IMG/VR virus record: IMGVR_UViG_3300020460_000012
Reading direction: 5' to 3' (one strand)
Origin: a virus
Lineage: Duplodnaviria > Caudoviricetes
Length of the DNA: 64,000 nt
Shown here piece by piece: positions 534 through 48,934 of this stretch. Numbering within the stretch: the first letter of the stretch is position 1; every line of letters begins with the position of its first letter. Position numbers and translations under genes: made by a program. The notes beneath the pieces were generated by a model. That model made no database searches. It saw nothing but the letters and a program-made list of their open reading frames with translations, and was not told the origin of the DNA.

Positions 534-1222
534 TTCAAGGATATGAAATAATCAAAAATTGCTTTGATCCTGTTGATCTTGCAAAGTGTAGTCAAGATCT
601 TCTTGATAGGAAAGAAGATTCGTATATCTATGAACATGATGGTAGTATAAGGAGTGTGTTTGCACCACATTGGTATAATAAAAATGTTGAAAAGTTTGTG
701 TATAATAATCCTGCAATTCCTCGTATAAAAGAATTAATAGCAGATGAAATATATGTGCATCAAGTACATTTTAATTACAAATTAGCAGGTGTAGGCGGAG
801 AATATGCATGGCATAGCGATTATACATTTTGGCATTACTATGATGGCATGCCCAATCCAAACGCTATAAGTGCCCTGTATCTTTTGGACGACATGACAGA
901 TGAAAATGGACCATTAGAAGTAAAGATTAATAGTCATAAAGGACCAGTCCAAAAACCTCCAAAAGGGGAGTGGACTATAAAGCATGACAGTAAGGAACTA
1001 CCTATAAAAACACCGTCTAAGACTGCATATAAGCGTCATACAGTGCTTGGCAAAGCTGGTGATGTAGTTTTGATGCATGCTAATTTACTACACGCTAGCA
1101 AGGCAAATAAGAGCCATAAAAACCGAAAAGTGCTATTTATATGCTATAATTCGCTAAAAAACGCCACGACAGAGGCGTTAAGACCTGGTTATATTACCCT
1201 AAAAAATTTTAAGACTGTTTAG
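530..1222 (+). CDS. Phytanoyl-CoA dioxygenase family (EctD-like) hydroxylase
   Basis: WHSDYTFWHYYDGMP, NGPLEV..NSH and distal MHANLLHAS motifs match the PhyH/EctD family. Confidence 0.8.
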   Translation: MIQGYEIIKNCFDPVDLAKCSQDLLDRKEDSYIYEHDGSIRSVFAPHWYNKNVEKFVYNNPAIPRIKELIADEIYVHQVHFNYKLAGVGGEYAWHSDYTFWHYYDGMPNPNAISALYLLDDMTDENGPLEVKINSHKGPVQKPPKGEWTIKHDSKELPIKTPSKTAYKRHTVLGKAGDVVLMHANLLHASKANKSHKNRKVLFICYNSLKNATTEALRPGYITLKNFKTV

Positions 1223-2345
1223 TAATGTTGATGTGTGTTAGTACGTTTTCGTACTTTATCTCGGCATTTAAGAGCCTTTTATCAGTGGTGATTGCATAGC
1301 CATTTAAGCCTACAAGTAAGTCCAAACGCCTTAAGTATTGTTGTTGATTTGGTAGTTTGAGCTCATCATATTCTACTCCAGGACGCATAGATACTTTATA
1401 TTTTCCTTTTCCTAAGTTAAAATATCTAAATACCACTGCTTTATCAAGCTTAATTTTTTCTTTTGTCTTATGTACAATACTATCCATTAATATTCTATTA
1501 TAATTACAATTGGCAGAATATTTTATTATAGTTTGTCCACTTGTACTTAATCTTGGACTAAAGTCTACAAGATATGGAACATTATCACGGACTACAAAAT
1601 CAGCCATAAAAGGACCATTATTATAGTCTAAGCTTTCGCACATAATCTTGCAATAATTTCCTATATCACACTGTACAGACGTATCTACTTTGCTAGGCCA
1701 AGTAAACCCTGTTTCAGCTCTAAACGGAAGATCACTAATTTCTATGTCATATATACAGTCTAAAATATATTCTCCATCTACTATTCTGCCTGATACACTT
1801 ACAGTTGGCCCTTCAATAAACTCTTGGTATATGTAATGGGAGTTTAGATCATTATAATGTATATCATCCAAAAAGTATCTATATTCACTCCAATTGTTTA
1901 ACACTTTGATACCGATCCCGCCAGTGCCGTTAGCAGGTTTTGCTACCACAGGAAATTGTCTTCTTAGTTTTAAATGGGTTATTGGTACAGGTATACCAAT
2001 ATTATATGCATGGTTAGTATAATTTTCTTTACTACTTAATATATCACATTGCTGTTTGTTAATACCTACTAGATCATGAATATATGGCAACATCATATCA
2101 TTATACAAAGGAAAAATATAATCAATTTTGTGTGTAGATATAATTTCTCTAAGTTGATTTGCAAGTTCCTTTCTATCATCGGTGCTAATAATAAAATTAG
2201 GAATTTTATCTGGTACAGTAGGTAGTAGTTTGTCTAAAAAATCACTTACATGTGTCTGCCATGTATATAACTTATAATTGTTTAGTTCTTGTGTAGTGTA
2301 TCTTAAATTATCACTTTGATAGTTTATAATTACTTTAGGAGCCAT
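1209..2345 (-). CDS. ATP-grasp ligase (amino-acid/peptide ligase type)
   Basis: FPVVAKPANGTGGIGI, YQEFIEGPTVSV and ADFVV..VDFSPRL ATP-grasp motifs. Confidence 0.8.
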   Translation of the reverse strand: MAPKVIINYQSDNLRYTTQELNNYKLYTWQTHVSDFLDKLLPTVPDKIPNFIISTDDRKELANQLREIISTHKIDYIFPLYNDMMLPYIHDLVGINKQQCDILSSKENYTNHAYNIGIPVPITHLKLRRQFPVVAKPANGTGGIGIKVLNNWSEYRYFLDDIHYNDLNSHYIYQEFIEGPTVSVSGRIVDGEYILDCIYDIEISDLPFRAETGFTWPSKVDTSVQCDIGNYCKIMCESLDYNNGPFMADFVVRDNVPYLVDFSPRLSTSGQTIIKYSANCNYNRILMDSIVHKTKEKIKLDKAVVFRYFNLGKGKYKVSMRPGVEYDELKLPNQQQYLRRLDLLVGLNGYAITTDKRLLNAEIKYENVLTHINITKQS

Positions 2346-2946
2346 ATGTAACCTTATCCCTCATAAATGTGTTCATATAGTGAAATTTCATACTAACAAA
2401 TCTTATTGTTACATCATACGGTAAAGGCTTACCTCCTAAGCAATGATCATACAATTTGTTTCCAGTCATATGTCCTGCTTTTACATATGCGGCATCTGTA
2501 ATATTATATTTTTCATCGTACAATTTACCCATCTTATCACCAAACTTTGATACATTTTGTCCTTGTAGTTGATTGCTTCCTTTTTTACTTACATTGTCTA
2601 TGTCAAATTTTCTAATCCAAAAAGCACCCCACTTTCCTCTTTCTTCACAATCGTCTATTTGGAACTTTACAAGTTTCGATATATTTTTTATATTAGTAAA
2701 ATGACTTTGATCCCGTCTTGCTAGCAAAGTATCAGTAGTAGTCCAAGGCATATTAGGCAAGTTGTTGTTTGCAATTACTGCTTGTATTTCATCGTCATGT
2801 ATAGATGCATATACATTTCTATCATCTGCAATGTATTTTACATTTTGCCATTGTGGATCTTTTTGCAGTGAGTGTAATTCAATTTGCGTATTAATAAATT
2901 TATAAAACATTTCTTTATGTTCGAAAGTTAGTTTAACACACTTCAT
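2335..2946 (-). CDS. Hypothetical protein (possibly acyltransferase/GNAT-like)
   Basis: 203-aa ORF coupled to both neighbours. The fold guess is weak. Confidence 0.5.
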   Translation of the reverse strand: MKCVKLTFEHKEMFYKFINTQIELHSLQKDPQWQNVKYIADDRNVYASIHDDEIQAVIANNNLPNMPWTTTDTLLARRDQSHFTNIKNISKLVKFQIDDCEERGKWGAFWIRKFDIDNVSKKGSNQLQGQNVSKFGDKMGKLYDEKYNITDAAYVKAGHMTGNKLYDHCLGGKPLPYDVTIRFVSMKFHYMNTFMRDKVTYGS

Positions 2947-3881
2947 TAGTATCCGCCTTCATTTCTTAATACATGTTCGAAGAAAGGAGCTACAGTCCAA
3001 TTTTCAGTTAATCTACCCCTATTAGGATTATCATGGTCAACAACACCGTCGTCATTTACAGACCAATCTACTAATCGAATTAAGATAGTACCTATTCTTG
3101 TTTTATATTCAAACATTCTACTAGTCATTCTATCGCCATCTTGCGGACCTGCTTTAACTACTCCACTACTTGTTTCAAAAATATTTTCTTTTTTTACTCC
3201 TAGTTCTTTTACAGCTAAGTCCATTAGTTCTTCCATTGAATAACTACTATCTTGCATATGTCTACCAATAAGTCCTACACTTTTCATACGAAGCACAGGT
3301 GTTATTCTATTATAAGGAGCAGTAGTATTAAAATTTATTCCACTTTTTTCTGCAAGATCAGTGAAAACTTCTACTTGTCTACGCATTGTCCTTTCATTTA
3401 CACCTTTTGCAATAATTGTTCCTGTATTCACAGGTAATCTAGCATCGAAAATATTTTTTAAAGCTCTTACTTTTGCAGTCGCCCATTTACCTTCATCTAG
3501 TATTTTATAAACTTCGTCGTCGTCTGCACCATTCATTGAATGTAATAATAAACGCAATCCAGCATCTTTTAATTTTTGAACATATTCTGGTCTTGCTAGT
3601 TTCAGTCCATTAGTTGTTACACTAGGTCTGTGACCGTATTTTTTAACTGCGGTAATTATTTCTGGTAGATCTTCACGCATAGTAGGTTCTGCTCCGATAA
3701 TACGTATGTAAGATCTAAAAGGTAATCGCTGTAAAAAATCAAATAGTTTATGTTTGTCTAAATCAGGTATATTCCGATTAGGAATATAACAGTTAGCACA
3801 TTCCATTTGACATTTATGTGTAATATCAACTACAATATTAGAAAAGGTATTGTTTTCTGGTTGAAGTTCGAAATACTTCAT
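2946..3881 (-). CDS. Radical SAM enzyme (MoaA-like N-terminus, no SPASM domain)
   Basis: CQMECANC (CxxxCxxC) and IIGAEPT motifs. Start moved to the ATG at 3881, directly after the upstream stop. Confidence 0.85.
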   Translation of the reverse strand: MKYFELQPENNTFSNIVVDITHKCQMECANCYIPNRNIPDLDKHKLFDFLQRLPFRSYIRIIGAEPTMREDLPEIITAVKKYGHRPSVTTNGLKLARPEYVQKLKDAGLRLLLHSMNGADDDEVYKILDEGKWATAKVRALKNIFDARLPVNTGTIIAKGVNERTMRRQVEVFTDLAEKSGINFNTTAPYNRITPVLRMKSVGLIGRHMQDSSYSMEELMDLAVKELGVKKENIFETSSGVVKAGPQDGDRMTSRMFEYKTRIGTILIRLVDWSVNDDGVVDHDNPNRGRLTENWTVAPFFEHVLRNEGGY

Positions 3882-3882
3882 A

Positions 3883-4581
3883 CTAGATCCAGAACTGCAC
3901 TCGCCACAGTGTTCTCGATCCAGTAAAAGCATGGCGTCTATGCATTACTCTTATATTATCGTAAATAAGGATATCATTTGGTTCCCATTGATGTTCATAT
4001 ATATTCTTCTCACAATGTGTAATTAAATGACTTACATCTATATCAGTTTGTAGTGAACCAGGACTAAAGTATAAAACTTTATCTCCAGTGATATGATGTG
4101 TATGTGCAAATTTTCTTGTTTGCTTGCGTTTTTCTAGTATTCTTTTTTGTTGTTCAGTAAAACAATAGTTGTATGCATCTGGAGGAAAATAAGTACCTTC
4201 TTGATCTTCTAATTCTTGTTTGTTAGGATAAGTTTGGTATGCATCTTTCATATCTACAAAATCTGTAGTGCTTTTTTCTCCGTTTAATTTATTGTAGAGC
4301 ATTGTACCAAAATAATTTCCTCTACCATAACTCCAATCATTATGCCATTCTACATCTCCGTCTATAAAAAGATCTGTCTCACTAACAATTTGTATGGTGT
4401 TATTTTTATTTAAAACATGATTTTTTGTATGAACTAGTTTACCTAAACGTGTTGACATTTGTTCATAGTCGGCAACACTTAGAGATCGATTGCCTTTGAA
4501 CACAATTAATCCGTATTTTAATAACTCTTCTTGTAAATTTAGTTTATCGAAGGCGGTGATGTCATATACTTTTGGGGTCAA
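3883..4581 (-). CDS. TauD/TfdA family 2OG-dependent dioxygenase
   Basis: WHND...QWEPNDILIYDNIRVMHRR motif. Likely TTG start at 4581 with AGGA upstream. Confidence 0.85.
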   Translation of the reverse strand: MTPKVYDITAFDKLNLQEELLKYGLIVFKGNRSLSVADYEQMSTRLGKLVHTKNHVLNKNNTIQIVSETDLFIDGDVEWHNDWSYGRGNYFGTMLYNKLNGEKSTTDFVDMKDAYQTYPNKQELEDQEGTYFPPDAYNYCFTEQQKRILEKRKQTRKFAHTHHITGDKVLYFSPGSLQTDIDVSHLITHCEKNIYEHQWEPNDILIYDNIRVMHRRHAFTGSRTLWRVQFWI

Positions 4582-4591
4582 GCTTTTAATC

Positions 4592-4933
4592 CTAATAAGT
4601 CGTTTTTTTACTAATTTTATTATACTTATCAGTGTGTATAACTGTAGCACCTTCAAAGTGAGGTGTTGTAGTATATGAAAGAATGACGCAAGGGTCACCT
4701 ATTTCGCCTAATCTAGCACCCCCGCCATTTAATTCGAATACTCCTTGGTCCCCTTTAATTACATAGGTACTCCATCGGTTGCCTGTGTTAAGATTAACTA
4801 CATCAACTTTTTGATATTGATCTATATTAGCTTCATCTAAAAGAACACTACAGATAGTAACACTACCATCATAGTGCAATGATTTATCAGTAACTATTAT
4901 ATTTTGGATTTTGGATTGGATATATTCTTTCAT
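4592..4933 (-). CDS. panD: Aspartate 1-decarboxylase (pyruvoyl-dependent)
   Basis: SK..LHYDGSV self-cleavage site, RWSTYVI and LNGGGARL all align to PanD. Confidence 0.9.
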   Translation of the reverse strand: MKEYIQSKIQNIIVTDKSLHYDGSVTICSVLLDEANIDQYQKVDVVNLNTGNRWSTYVIKGDQGVFELNGGGARLGEIGDPCVILSYTTTPHFEGATVIHTDKYNKISKKTTY

Positions 4934-4939
4934 AGTACT

Positions 4940-4968
4940 ATTGTACTACAAAGTATACAATATGTCAA
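4940..4968 (-). promoter_or_regulatory. Sigma70-like promoter, probably giving a leaderless panD transcript
   Basis: TTGACA-17 nt-TACAAT, with the ATG only 6 nt past the -10 box and no SD. Confidence 0.7.
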
Positions 4969-46289: not shown

Positions 46290-47015
46290 ATGGGTGCAAA
46301 ACGAGCCTCTCGTAAGAGACATAACTCAAGCAATAACTACAGCAATGTAGTAGAACTCAACACATATCAAAAACAACGAAACGTTACAATAATTCCCCGA
46401 AATAAAAATCAAGAAACTTATGTTTTAAAACTGTTAGATGACACCAAGGACATAGTCTTTGGAATCGGTCCGGCTGGTACAGGAAAAACACTACTAGCAG
46501 TTCAGGTCGCAGTAAAATTATTTAAGGCAGGCGTTATTGATAAAATTATTGTAACTAGACCAGCAGTCTCAGCTGATGAAGATCTAGGGTTTTTACCTGG
46601 TACATTAGAACAAAAAATGGCACCATGGACAAGACCTATATTCGATGTTTTAAGAGAATATTTTCAAGCAAGGGAAATAGAAGGTATGATTGATGAAGGC
46701 ATCATTGAAATTGCGCCATTAGCATATATGCGTGGGCGTACTTTTAAACACAGCTTTATTTTAGCTGATGAGATGCAAAATGCTACCCCTAATCAAATGA
46801 AAATGTTACTAACTAGACTTGGCGAAGGAAGCCAAATGGCTGTAACAGGCGATTTAGCACAAGCTGATCGCTTGAATGAAAACGGCTTAATTGACTTTGC
46901 TCGCAAGCTAACAAATAGTAACCTTAGCCATTTGGACATAGTCCACTTCGCTCAAGGAGATATTGAGCGACATCAAGCAGTTAAGGAGGTCCTGGAAATA
47001 TACGGAGATGAATGA
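46290..47015 (+). CDS. phoH: PhoH family ATPase
   Basis: GPAGTGKT, TRPAV..LGFLPG, MRGRTF, DEMQN and TGDLAQAD motifs; GGAGG SD. Confidence 0.95.
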   Translation: MGAKRASRKRHNSSNNYSNVVELNTYQKQRNVTIIPRNKNQETYVLKLLDDTKDIVFGIGPAGTGKTLLAVQVAVKLFKAGVIDKIIVTRPAVSADEDLGFLPGTLEQKMAPWTRPIFDVLREYFQAREIEGMIDEGIIEIAPLAYMRGRTFKHSFILADEMQNATPNQMKMLLTRLGEGSQMAVTGDLAQADRLNENGLIDFARKLTNSNLSHLDIVHFAQGDIERHQAVKEVLEIYGDE

Positions 47016-47016
47016 A

Positions 47017-47044
47017 AATAGTGGGGGAGAAATCCCCCACTATT
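47017..47044. terminator. Bidirectional hairpin terminator
   Basis: Perfect 12-bp stem AATAGTGGGGGA-GAAA-TCCCCCACTATT between convergent genes. Confidence 0.85.
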
Positions 47045-47123
47045 AATCCGGAAATAGGTGTATCACTATCATAGCAAATACGATGTATGCTATACCTATA
47101 ATTATAGGACTTAATTCACCCAT
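47043..47123 (-). CDS. 26-aa membrane peptide (not in ORF track)
   Basis: MGELSPIIIGIAYIVFAMIVIHLFPD, starting 3 nt after the pqqA stop. Confidence 0.5.
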   Translation of the reverse strand: MGELSPIIIGIAYIVFAMIVIHLFPD

Positions 47124-47126
47124 CAC

Positions 47127-47198
47127 TTAGTTGCTCTTAGCATACATTGTGATTTCGAAGCCAAGTCTTATATTTTCATACGTTGGTTTTGTCCACAT
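47127..47198 (-). CDS. pqqA: Coenzyme PQQ precursor peptide (not in ORF track)
   Basis: AGGAG SD; [23 protein letters not shown] matches PqqA MWxKP..RxGFExTxY including the ExxxY pair. Confidence 0.92.
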
Positions 47199-47397
47199 AG
47201 TTTTTCTCCTGTGCAATTTTAAAGAGATCTTCGGCAGCACAATGTGGTGCAGACCTACAATCTCTTAGGTTTCTCTGGAATCTAAGAGGATCTATAAAGT
47301 TCATAGGTTGTGGATCATCGTAGTATTCCAAAAAATCTGTTGGGCCAGGTGTATGGCAACCGGCTAGTAAAAAACAAACTAATAAAAGTTTTTTCAT
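47176..47397 (-). CDS. Lipoprotein
   Basis: [14 protein letters not shown] lipobox. Confidence 0.75.
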
Positions 47398-47567
47398 CTA
47401 ATCATCCTTTGTTGTATTTCTCTATAATTCATGCTAACATTAGGCCTTAAACTCTGCATGAAGATATCTTGATTTCTCATAGTTTGCATAGACCAGTCTT
47501 GTGCCGACCTTTCTGGCAAATTACTACAGCCAGTTAATAAAATACATGTAAGTATTAGTCTTTTCAT
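47394..47567 (-). CDS. 57-aa lipoprotein (not in ORF track)
   Basis: MKRLILTCILLTGC lipobox; ATGA overlaps at both ends. Confidence 0.75.
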   Translation of the reverse strand: MKRLILTCILLTGCSNLPERSAQDWSMQTMRNQDIFMQSLRPNVSMNYREIQQRMIR

Positions 47568-48862
47568 TTTTCTGCTAACATCCTTTGAGCTTTTAGCTCA
47601 TTGTATCCTTCCTCATCTAAGTGTGTAATTGCAAGCCAGGCATGAGTCATTTCATCTCCTGTCCTACTACCACCCATTACCCACATGTCAGGATCAGGAT
47701 TGTTTGGGTTATTTGCGGTATTGTCATACCACTGCTTCAATATAATAACTGCACCTGCAGGTATTAATGGGGCTACATGTGGTTCAAATAAATGACTGTG
47801 ATGCCATGTTGCACTCCAATTAGATATTTGACTCACAGGTTCTGTACGACCAGTTTCTGGATAAAATATTTCTAAACTAGCCGCATTCATTCTCAAATGT
47901 CCATGTGGTTGAAAGCTATCTAAACGCACAGGATGATCAAAACTGTGGAAACCTTGTGTCATATGATAGCCATGTGGAGGAATAACGATATCGTCTTGAT
48001 TGCCTAGCCGATATAAACTTAAATCTTGTTTGTATTTCAGTTCTTGGCTTTCCTCTTCGCTGTATAACCAAAGTCCAATTTCCACCACGTTGTCTTTGAT
48101 AACTGTACCTGGAGCCATTGTTCCTAAACCGCCAGGAAACATATGTATGTCCCAACGAACTTGTGAATTTGCAGGAAGTGTTCTGCAAACTCCTTCCGGG
48201 ACAATCTCTCCCCACTTTCCCATAGCGTATTCCGTAAGCATACCTTCACGACCTCCATCAATAACTACATTAGAATTAGCATGATGAACTACAGACTTTG
48301 CATCGCCTCTAGGTTTTACTTGCACTGCTTTAATACATCTGTCTTCTGTGAGTCCTGTTGGTACTAGATGCTTGTGCCACAGATCGTTACCACTTGCTGG
48401 AATATCTATAGGAACGCTAGGAATTATTAGATTCGGTGGACCAAAGTCTCCAGCAAAATTCCATTGGTCTGGATCAGCAAGATTAGGAGGTTGTACGACT
48501 ATGTCGGTATCTCCGTATTGGGAGCCTGAGTCTACCCAAGCTACTATTGTATCTATTTCTTTTTGTGACAGTCGCCAATCACCTTGTAGGTCTTGTATGC
48601 CTATTCCGTGGTCGTAAGCATACGGAGGCATTTCTCTACTAGCTACTTTCATTTTAATTAATGGTGCCCAAGGACGAACTTGTTCGTAGCCCTCAAAACT
48701 CATAGGGCCTATACCGCCTGGTCTATGACATATTAAGCAATTATTATTGATTATCTTTGCTACATCATCTGTGTAAGTTTGTGCATGCACTCCAGATGTA
48801 AAATACATCAAGCCCATAAGCACAAGTAGGTCTATCGCCAATAAGGATTTGTTCGTTTTCAC
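47564..48862 (-). CDS. Secreted c-type heme / copper type II ascorbate-dependent monooxygenase-like protein
   Basis: Signal peptide, CLICH heme motif, VVHHAN, PHGH and GDEM Cu ligands of the PHM/DBH family. Confidence 0.8.
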   Translation of the reverse strand: MKTNKSLLAIDLLVLMGLMYFTSGVHAQTYTDDVAKIINNNCLICHRPGGIGPMSFEGYEQVRPWAPLIKMKVASREMPPYAYDHGIGIQDLQGDWRLSQKEIDTIVAWVDSGSQYGDTDIVVQPPNLADPDQWNFAGDFGPPNLIIPSVPIDIPASGNDLWHKHLVPTGLTEDRCIKAVQVKPRGDAKSVVHHANSNVVIDGGREGMLTEYAMGKWGEIVPEGVCRTLPANSQVRWDIHMFPGGLGTMAPGTVIKDNVVEIGLWLYSEEESQELKYKQDLSLYRLGNQDDIVIPPHGYHMTQGFHSFDHPVRLDSFQPHGHLRMNAASLEIFYPETGRTEPVSQISNWSATWHHSHLFEPHVAPLIPAGAVIILKQWYDNTANNPNNPDPDMWVMGGSRTGDEMTHAWLAITHLDEEGYNELKAQRMLAEK

Positions 48863-48905: not shown

Positions 48906-48934
48906 AGTATATTATAAAATCAAGAGATTTGCAA
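48906..48934 (-). promoter_or_regulatory. Sigma70-like promoter
   Basis: TTGCAA-17-TATACT upstream of the monooxygenase. Confidence 0.5.

Follow-up and report, generated by a model that had tools for sequence, protein, structure and literature searches.

The window, that is the whole stretch of 64,000 nucleotides which was analysed, forms part of a contig (C57) of 335,231 bp with a GC content of 35.8%. Among the proteins it encodes, profile searches identified a B-family DNA polymerase, baseplate-wedge and virion-structural proteins and an HNH endonuclease, and PhoH, ThyX and a GH108 endolysin are encoded there as well. The DNA polymerase shares 41-50% identity with the polymerases of jumbo myoviruses of the Rak2/GAP32/Atu_ph07 type, and megablast of 7 kb around the gene under study, pqqA, against GenBank phages returned no close cultured relative. 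Proteins identical to a neighbour of pqqA are found on contigs of up to 338,594 bp, and an IMG/VR relative reaches 339,794 bp. The carrier is a Rak2/GAP32-like uncultured marine jumbo phage of roughly 335-340 kb which recurs across samples. Indeed, the polymerase, baseplate and virion genes on the contig, together with syntenic IMG/VR contigs, confirm that the gene is phage-borne, as an earlier note made from the sequence alone had claimed.

The gene of interest belongs to a short series on the minus strand, in which a 432-aa gene is followed by a 57-aa ORF, a 73-aa ORF, pqqA, a 27-aa ORF and a terminator-like hairpin. The positions of these features are given in Table 1.

Table 1. Features of the pqqA locus (positions of the window)
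Feature	Position	Strand	Remarks
Candidate sigma-70-like promoter, TTGCAA-17-TATACT	48906..48934	-	5' of the 432-aa gene; weak
432-aa gene, secreted cytochrome c + PHM/DBH-like two-copper monooxygenase	47564..48862	-	First gene of the apparent transcription unit
57-aa small lipoprotein ORF	47394..47567	-	Lipobox LLTGC; paralogue of the 73-aa ORF
73-aa small lipoprotein ORF	47176..47397	-	Lipobox LLAGC; final 23 nt overlap the start of pqqA
Shine-Dalgarno, AGGAG	47206..47210	-	7-nt spacer to the ATG of pqqA; read from the sequence
pqqA, 23 codons + stop	47127..47198	-	Sequence; PF08042; TIGR02107; sole PqqA match in the assembly
27-aa hydrophobic ORF	47043..47126	-	Directly 3' of pqqA; GTG at 47126, ATG at 47123; reality uncertain
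Terminator-like hairpin, GGGGGA-TTTC-TCCCCC + T run	47024..47038	-	Ends the unit; faces the convergent phoH
phoH	46290..47015	+	PF02562, 244.5 bits; convergent, marks the end of the accessory region

The pqqA reading frame occupies exactly the interval and has exactly the translation given in the earlier note, and the strand, which had been left unstated, is the minus strand. The frame opens with ATG at 47198-47196 and closes with TAA at 47129-47127; the plus strand of the same interval translates into an unrelated string. The product has the size and the motif of PqqA, namely 23 aa with E15-I-T-M-Y19, in which the residues of the cross-link are encoded by GAA at 47156-47154 (Glu15) and TAT at 47144-47142 (Tyr19). 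The Glu and Tyr of PqqA are the two residues which become PQQ. The ribosome-binding site, described beforehand as strong, is found as an AGGAG at the expected distance from the ATG. On profile searches the peptide reaches 40.0 bits with Pfam PF08042 (PqqA; E 3.7e-10, cut-off 21.1), where the entire 19-position model is covered, and 44.4 bits with NCBIfam TIGR02107 (E 9.7e-12, cut-off 20), again with full coverage of the model. The latter profile is the one named in the earlier note, and with both profiles passed and Glu15 and Tyr19 in place the peptide is a true PqqA with the cross-linking residues. Furthermore, when the whole 2.36-Mb assembly was searched in six frames, pqqA was the sole PqqA match (E 8.7e-9), and no PqqA match was observed in 14 control genomes; hence it is not a chance match. 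The identity of the phage gene as pqqA is secure.

The exact 23-aa peptide was not found among ~ 15 billion predicted proteins. Since the 432-aa protein encoded nearby in this phage is called on 16 contigs of that collection, the absence of the peptide indicates that gene callers miss pqqA, just as its length had led the earlier note to expect. On the RNA side, one 155-nt seawater metatranscriptome contig, from a library which is strandless and may contain DNA, spans 47133-47286 with 0 mismatches.

We next turned to the enzymes of the pathway. PqqB, PqqC and PqqD were found by family searches neither in the window nor in the 335-kb contig nor in the 2.36-Mb bin which holds it, and the assembly is without a PqqD-like domain. 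For tblastn, PqqB, D, E and C of the cellular operon L142 were used as references, all four of which score above their NCBIfam equivalog cut-offs. With these queries the bin gave nothing beyond a phage radical-SAM core, and nothing was found in the at least 120 viral pqqA loci described below. The lack of pqqB-E, which had been noted for the window, thus extends to the contig and the bin by family searches and tblastn alike, and nowhere is the phage pqqA accompanied by pqqB, C, D or E. As orphan pqqA copies are known in bacteria (PMC9851590), missing pqqB-E neighbours do not exclude membership of the PqqA family. The radical-SAM gene of the phage (window 2946-3932, minus strand) was considered as a PqqE and rejected, with 40.4 bits to TIGR02109 against a cut-off of 381.35. 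Its match covers positions 9-170 of the PqqE model only, that is the generic core alone without the SPASM/PqqE-specific region, and its best match is TrsS with 83.6 bits (cut-off 490). No TIGR03075 match, which would denote a PQQ-dependent dehydrogenase, was obtained in the assembly, phage contig included.

The first gene of the unit encodes a protein with a signal-like N-terminus and a haem-c site, CxxCH, formed by C42, C45 and H46. Within its family H193, H194, H240, H320, H322 and M405 are invariant, even in paralogues down to 28% identity. With Foldseek, each of the best 31 matches to its AlphaFold model is either a peptidylglycine alpha-hydroxylating monooxygenase or a dopamine beta-hydroxylase, but the mean pLDDT of the model is just 61.5 and the TM-scores amount to 0.2-0.3. 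Apart from a weak Cytochrome_CBB3 match the protein has no Pfam, NCBIfam or PHROG match. It has no homologue in GenBank phages, and for that reason it gives no clue to the host. Its family comprises 5,655 homologues, which are unannotated. PHM-like proteins of this kind are common in marine viral contigs (relatives L144-L223), where tandem paralogues with a small lipoprotein behind them are frequent.

The 57-aa and 73-aa ORFs are themselves paralogous, as both match the same positions in L212-L219. Homologues of the 73-aa lipoprotein occur in 29 viral loci, usually right 3' of a PHM-like gene, which suggests that this lipoprotein is a conserved partner protein. They adjoin pqqA in L003, L005 and L066. 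The 27-aa ORF has no homologue in the viral loci. Promoter-like sites such as the one listed in Table 1 are not enriched over shuffled sequences (18 found, 13.7 +/- 4.0 expected). The closest syntenic relative, L144, has a tandem pair of PHM-like genes, preceded by thyX and a 251-aa gene and followed by pqqA and then phoH; where L144 has the second paralogue of this pair, the window has the two lipoprotein ORFs. The stretch which separates thyX and the PHM-like genes from phoH, and in which pqqA sits, is variable.

For the association of pqqA with the PHM-like gene, relatives were found through the neighbouring 432-aa gene, independently of pqqA, and then scanned with a PqqA HMM. A pqqA is present in 14/80 loci with a gene of the 432-aa type, or in 11/60 when at least 2.5 kb downstream are required. 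An obligate linkage of pqqA and the PHM-like gene is therefore ruled out, and with a presence in just 11/60 related loci pqqA is a dispensable, accessory gene in this phage group.

It is conceivable that the peptide is a substrate of the phage's own enzymes, either the PHM-like monooxygenase or those of a radical-SAM island (1209-4968), which would turn it into PQQ or another product independently of pqqB-E. In those 14 independently found loci pqqA lies right 3' of the PHM-like gene, at 1-12 nt in several, and in most of them it follows a tandem PHM-like pair; moreover peptides are substrates of PHM enzymes, a radical-SAM gene is encoded by the phage and the lineage of the bin is without pqqB-E. 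However, the PHM-like protein carries a signal sequence and a haem-c site, which implies the periplasm. The whole module is predicted to lie there; PqqA, by contrast, is without a signal peptide. Nor do the PHM-like loci and pqqA travel together as a rule, since 49/60 of these loci are without pqqA and most viral pqqA are in unrelated contexts. The radical-SAM protein, far below the PqqE cut-off (40 bits, with 381 required), matches the generic core only and is encoded 43 kb away, and no PqqD-like domain accompanies it in the assembly. We consider such a use of the peptide distinctly unlikely. A bolder form, in which the host is PQQ-less and phage enzymes mature PqqA into PQQ or a related cross-linked cofactor for the adjacent and entirely uncharacterised cytochrome-c/PHM-like-lipoprotein module, appears highly improbable; if true, it would be a virus-borne cofactor pathway unlike pqqBCDE.

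In order to estimate how widely the gene is spread, a degenerate back-translation of the PqqA core was used as a DNA pattern on IMG/VR contigs. This pattern scan detected a 23-codon orphan pqqA in at least 120 contigs; every match listed is a 23-codon ORF, with an SD-like purine run 5' of almost all. The flanks of the viral copies encode podovirus-type terminase, portal and capsid, T4-type gp23, UvsX/RecA and gp32; at least three unrelated phage architectures include a pqqA, as do cultured phages. Among the matches listed there are 84 distinct viral sequences, in which Glu15 and Tyr19 are invariant, both residues having been required by the search pattern. Residue 20 is Ala in the window copy alone and Phe, Ile, Val or Tyr in the other 83/84 distinct viral sequences listed. 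Indeed, the whole tail after Tyr19 is peculiar in the window copy, where it reads AKSN compared to F/I/V/Y-x-x-R/K in relatives.

A pN/pS of 0.26 with near-saturated synonymous sites, obtained from these 84 pattern-selected sequences, was set aside as biased, the pattern fixing many residues. Among the relatives found independently of pqqA, five distinct syntenic orthologues differ from the window copy at 14-17/69 nt. The same five show 0-3 amino-acid changes in codons 1-19, and all four tail codons differ. These comparisons indicate a pqqA core under purifying selection and a tail that is free to vary.

Such a pattern also bears on the idea that pqqA is a neutral passenger, a host fragment recently captured and without a role for the phage. 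Its accessory distribution (11/60 related loci) and its place in the variable region before phoH would agree with a passenger. On the other hand, the ORF is intact in the at least 120 viral loci listed, with an SD in almost all, and a high synonymous divergence is combined with a fixed core. Moreover, the gene recurs in unrelated phage architectures, as well as in cultured phages, and the flanks show no leftover host DNA, for instance a remnant of pqqB. A passenger is hence very unlikely.

The conservation of the core is equally relevant to a second use of the peptide, that of a decoy for PqqD/E, already raised in the earlier note. As a decoy or inhibitor the peptide would occupy or titrate host PqqD/PqqE without yielding PQQ and so shut down PQQ-dependent metabolism. 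Complex prediction of phage PqqA with a cellular PqqD gave an ipSAE of 0.56 compared to 0.02 for the best control, a value which counts as a weak pass (<= 0.60), with a partner pLDDT of at least 62 and at least 87% of contacts in common between runs. In a calibration composed of proteins of 30 residues or more, 51/78 solved complexes and 2/108 mismatches reach the mark applied, and the prediction may be a recall of a solved PqqA-PqqD complex. Docking on PqqD is thus predicted, weakly, and together with the whole conserved N-terminal and core region, which is kept, it would suit a decoy; so would a tail after Tyr19 unlike that of all relatives. Nevertheless, the cross-link residues and every invariant core position are kept in at least 84 viral sequences, which would be needless for a pure blocker, and the tail of PqqA is variable in cellular copies too. 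Furthermore, phages generally profit from a sustained host energy metabolism. A decoy is accordingly improbable, and all three of these alternatives (decoy, substrate of phage enzymes, passenger) have less support than the supply of precursor to the host.

Among cultured phages, tblastn against GenBank phages detected PqqA in the OM43/LD28 phages Venkman, Melnitz (four isolates), MEP301/401/402 and P19250A. In Venkman (L225, MT375522.1, 9986-10045) the intact peptide MWTKPSATEMRFGFEVTMYVMNK is preceded by an SD and lies where GenBank annotates nothing, on the strand opposite to the early genes around it. In Melnitz-1 (L224, MZ577095.1, 74888-74941) the intact peptide MKWTKPVAQEMRFGFEVTMYIMTR, again with an SD, is likewise unannotated and a 'hypothetical protein' on the opposite strand, Melnitz1EXVC043M_151, is called over the locus. 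The Melnitz paper contains no report of a phage pqqA, and PQQ appears there solely as a medium supplement. GenBank records of cultured phages thus omit pqqA or annotate the wrong strand. In addition, virome surveys of auxiliary metabolic genes under-count pqqA because standard gene callers skip a 72-bp gene.

Several other records deserve mention. 'Acinetobacter phage MD-2021a' (L226, CAKLQF020000010.1) was rejected as a pqqA phage since it carries ppk and a complete pqqABCDE operon and is a contig of bacterial origin, seemingly chromosomal. An orphan pqqA without pqqB was observed on a contig of 5,003 bp with 38% GC from a 'Verrucomicrobiales' MAG (L131, WTHG01000117.1); this MAG is without PqqC, and the contig is probably a mis-binned phage contig. 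Two IMG/VR viral contigs, L102 and L104, encode a Klebsiella/Enterobacter-type PqqA, MWKKPEFVDLRLGLEVTLYISNR. No pqqB lies downstream in either, hence they provide no reference pqqB-E, and their pqqA may be orphans in enterobacterial phages.

A viral PqqA is not new as such. Coutinho et al. 2020 (Microbiome 8:163, PMC7678222) described it in Lake Baikal phages assigned to methylotrophs and already proposed for it the auxiliary metabolic role considered here. The novelty implied in the earlier note was therefore overstated, as viral PqqA has been in print since 2020 (PMC7678222) and is widespread in phages. The concept is known and the viral copies are mostly unannotated; peculiar to the present copy are the jumbo carrier, the non-methylotroph subtype of the peptide, the association with a cytochrome-c/PHM-like module and the conflict between a presumed PQQ-producing host and a PQQ-less bin.

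The question of the host was approached through the subtype of the peptide. When 185,579 species-representative genomes were scanned with a pattern specific for this subtype, 21 loci matched, of which 20 are from Gammaproteobacteria, mostly MAGs labelled Pseudohongiellaceae or Pseudomonadales. The cellular peptides of this subtype are up to 19/23 identical to the phage PqqA, and in most of the 21 loci pqqB, D, E and C follow pqqA (pqqA-B-D-E-C operons). No Methylophilaceae with the PqqA subtype of the phage was found among the same 185,579 genomes, and the peptides of OM43 phages have 13-14/23 residues in common with that of the window. The likeness is best seen in four operon copies of marine Gammaproteobacteria (L123, L139, L140 and L142; Pseudohongiellaceae/Pseudomonadales MAGs), which have the same length as the phage peptide, at most 19/23 identity to it and the pattern MWTKP...RLGFEITMY. 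In these four a verified pqqB, pqqD, pqqE and pqqC follow. They differ from the phage copy in their tail, F-S/K-x-R compared to AKSN, and the GC content of the cellular loci of this subtype is 42-62% compared to 35.8% for the phage. Judging from these sequences, a PQQ-producing marine gammaproteobacterium is the most likely source of pqqA and the most likely cell in which it acts.

The bin which holds the contig points elsewhere. Neither pqqB-E nor a PQQ-type alcohol dehydrogenase is found in it, and among 40 relatives of the bin at genus, family and order level none has a PqqC above cut-off, a PqqA or the polymerase of the phage. The bin measures 2.36 Mb compared to 0.9-1.8 Mb for seven congeners, and the 335-kb phage contig inflates it. 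Given this inflation and the lack of the phage's polymerase in any relative, the contig was probably binned by composition, which does not show that it belongs to that host. The bin as host is unsupported, as its lineage makes no PQQ and the binning is a single association without independent support. Hence the PQQ-producing host which the earlier note had deduced is reasonable in so far as the cellular PqqA closest to that of the phage are encoded in full pqq operons, but it finds no counterpart in the bin and its 40 relatives, which are without PqqC and PqqA.

PqqA is the sole part of the PQQ pathway which is consumed one-for-one, PqqB, C, D and E being catalytic or, in one case, a reusable chaperone. 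For this reason 72 bp would be enough for a phage. With the gene identity, the intact motif, the phage context, the orphan status, the wide conservation among phages and the constrained core established, we consider it probable that the gene is a functional, stand-alone phage-borne pqqA which supplies the consumable precursor to the PqqB-E of the host. In such a course of events translation would start behind the gene's own AGGAG and yield the PQQ precursor of 23 residues, which PqqD/PqqE of the host would take up during infection. Glu15 and Tyr19 of the phage peptide would then be cross-linked and the product matured to PQQ, which would keep the periplasmic PQQ-dependent dehydrogenases of the host, and hence its energy supply, running. 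We infer accordingly that the gene is expressed in infection, that its peptide is used by the Pqq enzymes of a PQQ-producing host and that the phage benefits. The predicted docking on PqqD speaks weakly for this reading as well, and so, faintly, does the 155-nt RNA contig. Against it stand the PQQ-less bin, the GC content of the phage, which is well below that of the cellular loci with this subtype, the absence of pqqA from most related loci and the Ala at residue 20.

An increased flux to host PQQ had been suggested in the earlier note as a possible effect. The supply of precursor itself draws its plausibility from the literature on pqqA dosage and cell-free conversion (PMC9851590, PMC7936290). 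Methylotrophs possess several stand-alone pqqA copies, some of which are the most highly expressed (PMC9851590). According to a study cited in the same paper, cell extracts turn added PqqA into PQQ (cited in PMC9851590), and work cited in PMC7936290 attributes a higher amount of PQQ in G. oxydans (Gluconobacter) to overexpression of pqqA alone.

Compared to known systems, the precursor-supplying gene proposed here is closest in kind to that of the Baikal Methylophilaceae phages (VP_266, PMC7678222), which likewise have a stand-alone gene for the PQQ precursor, read as an auxiliary metabolic gene for dehydrogenases. Those phages are from freshwater and have been assigned to methylotroph hosts, whereas the carrier here is a marine jumbo myovirus of ~ 335 kb; in addition, the Baikal group has a viral methanol dehydrogenase while no PQQ-type alcohol dehydrogenase was found in the present assembly. 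The OM43/LD28 phages (Venkman MT375522, Melnitz MZ577095-98, MEP301/401/402, P19250A) share with the window an orphan pqqA of 23-24 codons with an SD and E-x-x-x-Y, without pqqB-E. Their PqqA are 55-61% identical to the window peptide and of another subtype, RFGFEVTMY, as opposed to the RLGFEITMY of the window, which is the type of Pseudomonadales/Pseudohongiellaceae Gammaproteobacteria. Their carriers, phages of 38-44 kb and a Kyanoviridae myovirus of 141 kb, have a known host, a methylotroph, and belong to lineages different from that of the window phage. Stand-alone pqqA of bacteria, such as pqqA3-5 of methylotrophs (PMC9851590), resemble the phage gene as lone copies outside pqqBCDE which provide extra precursor; they share their cell with pqqB-E, whereas the phage copy relies on a host yet to be entered.

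With its 72 bp, pqqA is unusually small for an auxiliary metabolic gene, and the proposed strategy is a simple one, to bring only the consumable substrate of a cofactor pathway of the host. Its known range, which comprised phages of methylotrophs, now includes a marine jumbo phage with a PqqA of the Pseudomonadales/Pseudohongiellaceae type, which suggests that phages manipulate PQQ-dependent oxidation of sugars or alcohols beyond methylotrophy.
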